Source: Escherichia coli
Lineage (GTDB): Bacteria > Pseudomonadota > Gammaproteobacteria > Enterobacterales > Enterobacteriaceae
Strand: one strand, 5' to 3'
Assembly (NCBI RefSeq): GCF_041886205.1
Contig: NZ_CP169029.1
DNA: 64,000 nt
Positions 33,817-34,544 of the stretch are shown here, piece after piece. Under the pieces are notes generated by a model. That model was not told the DNA's origin, did no database searches, and saw only the letters and a list, made by a program, of their open reading frames with translations. Each line of letters opens with the position of its first letter. Position 1 is the first letter of the stretch. The position numbers and the translations under genes are program-made.

Positions 33817-34544
33817 GTCGTGATTTGAACTGACGCAAGTCCCTGCAAAGTTAAGCGTTACCGTCTTGAGATAGGTATACAAAGTCTCATACTTCTCTCT
33901 CAACAATCCGAAATAATCGGGTACCCGCGTTTACCGGATCAGGAAGGCATATACTATCCGGTCTGCGCTTTCTACTGCAATATTTCTAAAAGTTGCGCAA
34001 CACGCGGCAGGATAGTGCTTTTACGCAAAGAAGCACTTTCTGCCGCCCGGGAAATGCGCGCGTGCTATACGCCGTTTTACCTGAGATATGACAGAGTAAA
34101 GCCCTGTTAAAATACTCTTGTCGTCTCAGGTATAATAAGTGATTAATATCAATCATATATTTTTACAGCAAGACAACCACGTACAAACTCAGGATTAATA
34201 TGTTTTACCGATTCCCCAACATAACCCAAATCAAGCGAACTAATTTGTGCCATTTCTTTCTCTGTCAATGAGAAATCGATTTTTGATGGGCATCTGCAAT
34301 ACTCTGAAGCAGACTATAAGGAAAATTCTACTGCCCCCCTCCATTCCGCATGAACAATGAGTCTACGTTAAAACGTAACCTCAAATTAGTATGTGGATTT
34401 TGATATCACTTATGCAAAAAATTCATTAATAATGTAGGACTGAAACCTCTCTATTTTCGGGGACAACGAAGCAGACGCTACCAGTGCTTTTGCCTTCGGC
34501 CTTGCTGTTTTTGATACACTTAGGGCCCAGGGCATAACGAAAAT

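Follow-up and report, generated by a model that had tools for sequence, protein, structure and literature searches.

In Escherichia coli MG1655 the genes leading up to betA are arranged in the order ykgA(pseudo)-ykgQ(pseudo)-rclC-rclB-rclA-rclR-ykgE-ykgF-ykgG-ykgH-betA. Two of them are the closest described relatives of the DNA analysed here, namely ykgG/lutC (b0308), a member of the LutC/YkgG family and the last gene of the ykgEFG lactate-utilisation operon, and ykgQ (b4631), which lies upstream of ykgA in K-12. A further point of comparison is offered by template-switch or quasipalindrome mutations and by replication-based rearrangements, in which templated insertions are found at the junctions.

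We analysed a window of 64 kb of E. coli DNA (64,000 nt, taken as one stretch), in which the interval between betA and a homologue of ykgA can be set beside each of these. Its ykgG remnant comprises the same K-12 codons ~167-196 and the last ~13 codons with the stop, and is convergent with betA; however, ~72% of the gene is lost here and the rest is 16-27% diverged, with stops, a frameshift and a gap. Positions 34069-34544 are collinear with the rclC-ykgQ-ykgA spacer of K-12 at 91% identity and carry the same two internal deletions in an aldo/keto reductase (AKR) gene, although the stump here adjoins the ykgG remnant and betA instead of rclC, and differs from K-12 by indels of 12 nt and 2 nt and by ~9% substitutions. 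As in template-switch mutations, there is a short junction insertion, part of which is inverted adjacent sequence that forms a near-perfect hairpin and, as in template-switch rearrangements, the other part resembles an inverted scrap from the deleted DNA. In contrast to those cases, there is just one natural junction here and no intermediates were seen, and the resemblance of the second part to rclR amounts to just 20/24 bases.

The TGA that ends betA occupies 33814-33816. For the downstream AraC-family gene, the ykgA homologue, the mechanical ORF starts at GTG 34545, and RefSeq places the start at ATG 34578 on identical sequence; the gap from betA to ykgA is accordingly 728 nt (33817-34544) or 761 nt (to 34577, with the RefSeq start). 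The initial annotation described an ORF-free interval between betA and an AraC-family pseudogene that is long for E. coli intergenic DNA, and offered three possible explanations: the scar of a deletion, a gene in decay, or a small RNA without annotation. This description proved accurate in each respect: the longest ORF fully within the interval is 56 aa (33986-34156, minus strand), the length is indeed unusual, the upstream gene product is 99.6% identical to K-12 BetA, and the downstream gene is a ykgA homologue cut short by IS1. The 56-aa ORF runs across the deletion junction described below, and a Pfam scan of it gave zero matches. Two minus-strand ORFs, of 86 and 90 aa, start no more than 32 and 90 nt from the left edge of the interval, and are shadow ORFs antisense to betA. 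The absence of ORFs is what would be seen here in any case, because any non-coding DNA looks so; the sole unusual trait is the length of non-coding DNA for the gene-dense E. coli genome. GC content, ~56% in betA, drops to 35-42% over the gap's right half.

A BLASTN comparison with other E. coli genomes, which had been proposed as a check, was run by megablast on a reference set of 5,426 complete E. coli genomes, and sensitive blastn against the K-12 loci was used for the mosaic. It revealed a mosaic scar and no gene. The features are given below, where q denotes positions counted from the start of the interval and L004, L003 and L002 are reference loci.

33817 to 33875, no strand assigned: betA 3' flank; q1-59 matches K-12 L004 1769-1826 at 71% by sensitive blastn, the K-12 counterpart being the first ~58 nt past the betA stop.
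33861 to 33945, minus strand: ykgG 3' flank and last ~13 codons; q45-129 matches K-12 L004 2856-2938 at 73%.
33940 to 34027, minus strand: internal ykgG/lutC fragment, K-12 codons ~167-196; 74/88 nt (84%) identical to K-12.
34004 to 34046, no strand assigned: strong 18-bp hairpin, from folding and shuffles.
34028 to 34068, no strand assigned: 41-nt junction filler of the 6,597-nt deletion, without a collinear K-12 counterpart.
34044 to 34067, plus strand: possible 24-nt rclR fragment (K-12 rclR nt 184-207), 20/24 identical.
34069 to 34148, no strand assigned: rclC-AKR spacer, from 67 nt after the K-12 rclC stop (rclC stop at L003 3889).
34107 to 34136, plus strand: promoter-like site TTAAAA-18-TATAAT, from a consensus scan.
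34149 to 34277, minus strand: 3' remnant of the aldo/keto reductase gene, equivalent to ykgQ (b4631); last 42 codons and stop.
34269 to 34331, minus strand: two more AKR scraps, one internal (49 nt) and one from the gene start (first 16 nt); q453-501 matches L002 4268-4316 and q500-728 matches L002 4902-5132.
34332 to 34577, plus strand: former divergent AKR/ykgA promoter region and ykgA leader, conserved in ~5,189 genomes.
34578 to 35184, plus strand: truncated ykgA homologue (AraC HTH plus GyrI-like, Rob-like), interrupted by IS1 at ~codon 202.

Because mosaic homology covers every segment, the interval can be read as a scar together with debris, and we are confident that it is a non-functional residue of gene loss with no gene of its own. 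The distance from betA to ykgA is 8,440 nt in K-12 and 761 nt in the window. The DNA missing relative to K-12 consists of a 6,597-nt block, which spans the 5' 499 nt of ykgG, all DNA up to and including rclC, and a further 66 nt (limits L004 3089 to L003 3955), a 1,029-nt ykgH segment and 62 nt within the ykgG tail. The flanks align collinearly with a longer arrangement found in most genomes of the species (5,016 of the 5,426 complete genomes have at least 80% of this long form) and the missing genes are absent at the locus: when eleven K-12 or strain-123 proteins were compared with the 64-kb window by tblastn, there was no homologue of the rcl genes, ykgE, ykgF or ykgH, and the only matches were to betA, to the ykgG and AKR remnants and to ykgA. 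Judged from these searches, this is a strain without the rcl and ykgEFG genes at this locus. Two of the explanations offered at the outset are therefore both correct, since the interval holds the junction of a 6.6-kb deletion with smaller losses, ~7.7 kb relative to K-12, as well as remnants of ykgG/lutC and of the aldo/keto reductase gene (ykgQ).

Three kinds of loss would account for the shortening. The AKR gene had already been cut to a ykgQ-type stump by two internal deletions. One 6.6-kb deletion took the DNA from mid-ykgG to 66 nt past rclC and has a 41-nt filler at its junction, in which neighbouring ykgG sequence is copied in inverted form and is probably joined by a scrap of rclR, likewise inverted. 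In addition, the ykgH segment is absent and the residual ykgG tail has decayed, with stops, a frameshift and the 62-nt gap. The rightmost ~250 nt is an ordinary ykgA promoter and leader region.

The left part of the scar derives from ykgG. In the tail piece the stop (TGA, minus strand) is at 33900-33902 and a 1-nt deletion shifts the frame, so that the minus-strand translation ends in GKRGYPIISDC-stop, compared with PVKAVYLIIEDC-stop in K-12; together with the 3' flank, 63/86 nt match K-12. The internal piece reads LRKSTILPRVAQLLEILQ-stop-KAQTG-stop-YMPS, with two in-frame stops, against LRKSTILPRVAQLAEKLHQKAQAGERMPS in K-12, and tblastn places YkgG residues 167-195 there at 76% identity. Absent here are the 62 nt of K-12 between the internal and tail pieces and the K-12 ykgH segment (1029 nt) between the betA flank and the tail piece. 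Both the homology, which is found at the expected place and on the expected strand, convergent with betA, and the lesions (5' 499 nt gone, two stops, a 1-nt deletion and a 62-nt gap) are those of a ykgG pseudogene. It is unannotated in all nine genomes found to carry the scar; labels can now be given to this fragment and to the junction of the deletion.

The remnant differs from K-12 ykgG at 14/88 positions of the internal segment, from the genes of Escherichia sp. E1V33, E. whittamii and the SCPM-O-B-8794 species at 16-18/88, and from Citrobacter ykgG at 17-19/88. It has K-12-specific (derived) ykgG bases, and 7 of its changes are at sites that are invariant among six intact Escherichia and Citrobacter genes. 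Being nearest to K-12, sharing K-12-specific bases and altered at seven invariant sites, it is therefore best regarded as a decayed E. coli ykgG on a long branch. Since the left-part query matches one place per record in the five genomes of the window type, these hold no second ykgG-like copy; across 5,185 genomes this query matched a median of 1 place per genome, in all cases ykgG. The remnant and its flanks are 71-84% identical to K-12 as compared with 91% for the right half of the interval and 98% for the flanking genes, and this excess divergence of the left part implies that the scar is not a simple recent deletion, but either an old event or the product of clustered complex mutations. 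The changes in the remnant are partly clustered, for example five within eight bases, and thus the divergence need not signal great age.

The right part derives from the AKR gene and its surroundings. Positions 34069-34544 (q253-728) form a single 476-nt HSP with the K-12-like L003 3956-4445 at 91%, which runs from the rclC flank through ykgQ to just before the ykgA start. The intact AKR gene (L002 4048-4917) encodes 289 aa in strain 123 and matches Pfam PF00248 (Aldo_ket_red) at 5e-43. What survives here is the last 42 codons (34149-34277), in which tblastn finds AKR residues 248-289 at 95%, the 49-nt internal piece and the first 16 nt; deletions of 91 nt and 585 nt part them. These lesions are shared by K-12, and the decay of the AKR gene is therefore older than the big deletion. 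The stump is a pseudogene of the ykgQ type, collinear with K-12 ykgQ and with an intact source gene in other strains; intact AKR and the ykgQ pattern each account for about half of an evenly spaced sample of E. coli matches. PGAP labels 129 nt of identical sequence a partial aldo/keto reductase pseudogene and MG1655 has ykgQ here, so this part of the scar is already annotated in K-12. The right 61% of the interval (34102-34544) is found in 5,189 genomes at 92-96% identity, where it lies between rclC and ykgA and is annotated 'aldo/keto reductase'.

A 20-mer in the K-12 ykgA-ykgQ spacer is a predicted AtoC site that was reported to be ChIP-positive (PMC3118216). The corresponding sequence in the window, ACTATAAGGAAAATTCTACT (34313-34332), is 2 mismatches from the AtoC-predicted 20-mer and overlaps the former start of the AKR gene.

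The scar was found in 9 of the 5,426 genomes (0.17%). Five of these (GF4-3, wlxctx60, PT62, LP5-1 and 6EVA) are ~100% identical to the window over the interval, and the other four (LHM10-1, MB53, CP52E and ET201) carry a variant at 90-92%. The two variants are 8% apart yet have identical junctions, which is odd for a haplotype this rare. No intermediate haplotype was found among the 5,426 complete E. coli genomes surveyed. In this lineage and in eight other sequenced E. coli, rclRABC (reactive-chlorine resistance) and ykgEFG (lactate utilisation) have been lost at their normal locus, and hypochlorite sensitivity is predicted from the loss of rclRABC. The LHM10-1-type variant has a 9-nt tandem duplication (CTCTCTCAA) at window 33894/33895, downstream of the ykgG stop. 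Its betA is also annotated as 18 nt longer (1,689 vs 1,671 nt), and the betA stop therefore differs between the two scar variants.

A rival explanation for this pattern is that the scar haplotype was imported by recombination from another Escherichia species or clade. The left 250 nt, at 71-84% identity to K-12 as against 98% in the flanking genes (98.0% for betA and 98.5% for ykgA), would be expected of imported DNA, as would two variants that are 8% apart and share their junctions. However, the remnant is closest to K-12 ykgG (14/88 differences, vs 16-19/88 for the others) and shares K-12-specific bases, the candidate donor species are without betA next to ykgG, and among the 5,426 complete E. 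coli genomes no intact ykgG exceeds 89% identity to the remnant. A protein-seeded scan for a donor species returned 73 ykgG loci, none nearer to the remnant than K-12, and import from another species was set aside as unsupported on that ground; an exact 24-mer from the most conserved ykgG stretch had zero matches in species-representative genomes. We consider import to be improbable, and keep to decay of a resident E. coli locus.

A strong hairpin is found at the deletion junction. Among the imperfect inverted repeats to which the initial annotation drew attention, the one quoted is a true 18-bp hairpin (34004-34046), in which 34004-34012 and 34014-34022 pair with 34029-34046 to give 18 pairs with one bulge and a 6-nt loop. 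Its folding energy is -27.5 kcal/mol (z = -5.3 against dinucleotide shuffles), and among distinct 53-nt hairpin loci it is the 7th strongest on the plus strand across all 64 kb of the window. The other direct and inverted repeats listed in the interval are short two-copy chance matches, and 34440-34520 and 33817-33900 fold no better than shuffles. It can be seen that the match to K-12 and to all other ykgG homologues stops at 34027 and that the rclC flank restarts at 34069. The left arm (34004-34022) belongs to the ykgG coding sequence and does not differ from K-12, and the right arm (34029-34046) lies wholly within the filler and forms 16 Watson-Crick pairs plus 2 G-T of the 18. The filler therefore opens with an inverted copy of its own neighbour, and we conclude that the hairpin is a by-product of the deletion junction.

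The remainder of the filler may also be templated. Positions 34044-34067 match the rclR sense strand (nt 184-207) at 20/24 bases, with a 13-nt exact run, and are inverted with respect to the K-12 gene order. When shuffled sequences and natural 41-mers were compared with the deleted 6.6 kb, a match this good was equalled by 1/2000 and 8/3000 of them, respectively (empirical p ~0.003). The match is short and was found post hoc, and an rclR origin of this piece is suggestive only. The two inverted templated pieces, of which the rclR piece has this suggestive status, cover 39/41 filler bases. These features suggest a replication template-switch or snap-back deletion, as a post hoc reading of one junction, and the junction would provide a tidy natural case in which a deletion carries inverted, templated filler. 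The junction (34028-34068) contains neither an IS end or remnant nor a REP or other dispersed repeat, its sequence matching only itself within the 64-kb window.

We considered whether the hairpin has since been co-opted, for example as a 3' stabiliser or as a pause or termination structure for read-through from the bet operon. In favour of such a role, this very stable structure is found 190 nt downstream of betA, on the same strand, and scar variants 8% apart do not differ in its stems: all 36 stem bases are constant in 9/9 scar genomes and both variable sites (34023 and 34025) are in the loop. It resembles an intrinsic (Rho-independent) terminator in being a GC-rich stable stem-loop downstream of a convergent gene pair but, unlike such a terminator, it has no run of T after the stem on either strand (the plus strand continues with CCGGGAAATG, the minus strand with CGTGTTGCGC), and a consensus scan for terminators made no call. 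As no T-run follows the stem, the hairpin is not a canonical terminator. Moreover, the conservation signal in the stem is weak (0 changes seen vs ~3 expected, p ~0.04) and was dropped as a sign of selection, the hairpin is missing from 99.8% of E. coli genomes, and it is fully accounted for by the inverted copy made in the deletion event. Co-option is thus very unlikely, and the hairpin is best left as a relic of the junction.

The third explanation offered at the outset, an unannotated small RNA, fared less well. That the interval encodes its own small RNA, or a small protein, would be in keeping with the long gap, with the presence of a strong hairpin and a promoter-like site, and with stems that are invariant among the nine scar genomes while the loop varies. 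However, the suggested covariance-model search gave nothing in the interval, either at E <= 10 over 33000-36000 or at the gathering threshold over the whole window; the only Rfam match in 33000-36000 was S4-Bacteroidia, which lies outside the interval and scored 15.8 bits (gathering score 34.7; E = 5.8). Likewise, no promoter-plus-terminator pair was found in the interval by consensus scan, and shuffles gave counts at least as high; the hairpin is without a U-tract, the promoter-like site is not followed by a terminator, and two terminator-like matches are weak (5-6 bp), one of them within betA. The left half is confined to 9/5,426 genomes and the right half, at ~91% identity to K-12, is less conserved than the coding flanks at 98.0-98.5%. 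The largest ORF, of 56 aa, spans the junction and has no Pfam match, the MG1655 record has no RNA gene annotated at the locus, and 0 changes in 36 stem positions against ~3 expected gives just p ~0.04. Literature searches on ykgQ and ykgA yielded no small RNA or transcript in this spacer, only the predicted ChIP-positive AtoC site. From these searches a small RNA or small protein gene here appears extremely improbable. The outcome is mainly a negative one, in that a gap resembling a hidden RNA gene is accounted for by gene loss.

Elsewhere in the window there are four minus-strand matches to Rfam naRNA4 (REP-derived nucleoid-associated RNA), at 51544, 51639, 52381 and 55104 (range 51544-55181). 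These are ordinary REP clusters, away from the interval.

One base of the scar is specific to this strain. Position 34133 is T here and A in K-12 (TAAAAT) and in 8/8 other scar genomes, and the A>T change is the sole substitution over 9,765 nt relative to wlxctx60, the nearest sequenced relative. The change yields a perfect TATAAT, preceded at a spacing of 18 nt by a TTAAAA -35 hexamer (consensus score 10/12), and the candidate promoter points to the truncated ykgA. Substitutions able to create TATAAT number 87/29,295, and those that do so with such a -35 hexamer 11/29,295; we regard the creation of TATAAT at 34133 as a post hoc coincidence. It is conceivable, although unlikely, that the scar is the birthplace of a new promoter driving the IS1-truncated, Rob-like ykgA'. 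An active promoter would mean that a transcription factor the size of MarA is driven by pseudogene debris, and selection may then have favoured the mutation; a strain-specific base that creates a consensus -10 box in debris is a hypothesis that would be cheap to test.

The history of the longer arrangement was assessed in sister species (Escherichia sp. E1V33, E. whittamii and 'E. coli' SCPM-O-B-8794; L009, L010 and L011, ~5200-15600), in which the order is ykgA-AKR(intact)-ykgE-F-G followed by an autotransporter. These species are without rclRABC, ykgH and the bet genes at the locus, and parts of the long form are therefore E. coli additions; the rcl cluster, like the bet operon with ykgH, looks to have been inserted in E. 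coli proper alone. No significant match to 34020-34160, the DNA at the right of the junction, was found in the post-AKR spacer of the sister species that lack rcl. That the short form might be ancestral, and the 8.4-kb K-12 form made by insertion of ykgH, ykgEFG and rcl, would agree with the absence of rclRABC, ykgH and the bet operon from this locus in sister Escherichia and with a left flank very diverged from K-12, but can be given almost no credence, because the scar is made partly of fragments of genes that were once intact (broken ykgG and AKR pieces), the sister species hold ykgE-F-G and AKR intact and adjacent, the DNA to the right of the junction is post-rclC spacer with no counterpart detected downstream of AKR in those species, and the filler may hold an rclR scrap.

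The scar lies in a neighbourhood that has been remodelled in other ways. Here IS1 (35185-35952) cuts the ykgA homologue at ~codon 202; the truncated gene keeps HTH_18/HTH_AraC and, because of the IS1 cut, has lost most of the GyrI-like (ligand-binding) domain. Over ~32 kb the window is 99.98% identical to E. coli wlxctx60, with three differences besides the substitution at 34133: a 3,259-nt deletion (~25420) by which pdeL and part of the autotransporter gene ehaA are gone, a 1-nt indel, and IS1 at 35185-35952, which joins ykgA to an island by thrW and proA. The 3,259-nt deletion junction has 3-nt microhomology (GTA). At its far side IS1 directly abuts the 'ABC-three component system' island (35953-38900), beside tRNA-Thr thrW (37459-37534) and proA, and this junction implies an IS1-associated loss of the DNA usually present between ykgA and thrW (fdeC and beyond).

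IS elements have struck independently in other strains and the neighbourhood is for this reason a rearrangement hot spot. MB53 (L085 3773-5109) has an independent IS1 in ykgA at nt 624 in the opposite orientation, and ET201 (L084 3273-4026) has IS1 within the scar. In LHM10-1 and CP52E (L005 and L086; ~9640 and ~3640) ISEcp1 severs the ykgA promoter region, and in FLI21 (L007 2389-3399) IS903B lies directly after betA. The scar resembles the IS-mediated deletions within the E. coli segment that runs from thrW-proA to betA in that the same area has been repeatedly remodelled, but differs from them in that its junction is without an IS end or remnant. Elsewhere in the window, ARAGORN calls a tRNA-Ser(GGA) at 8591-8671 on the minus strand, where the Rfam tRNA model is silent at the gathering threshold, and this call is probably a false positive.
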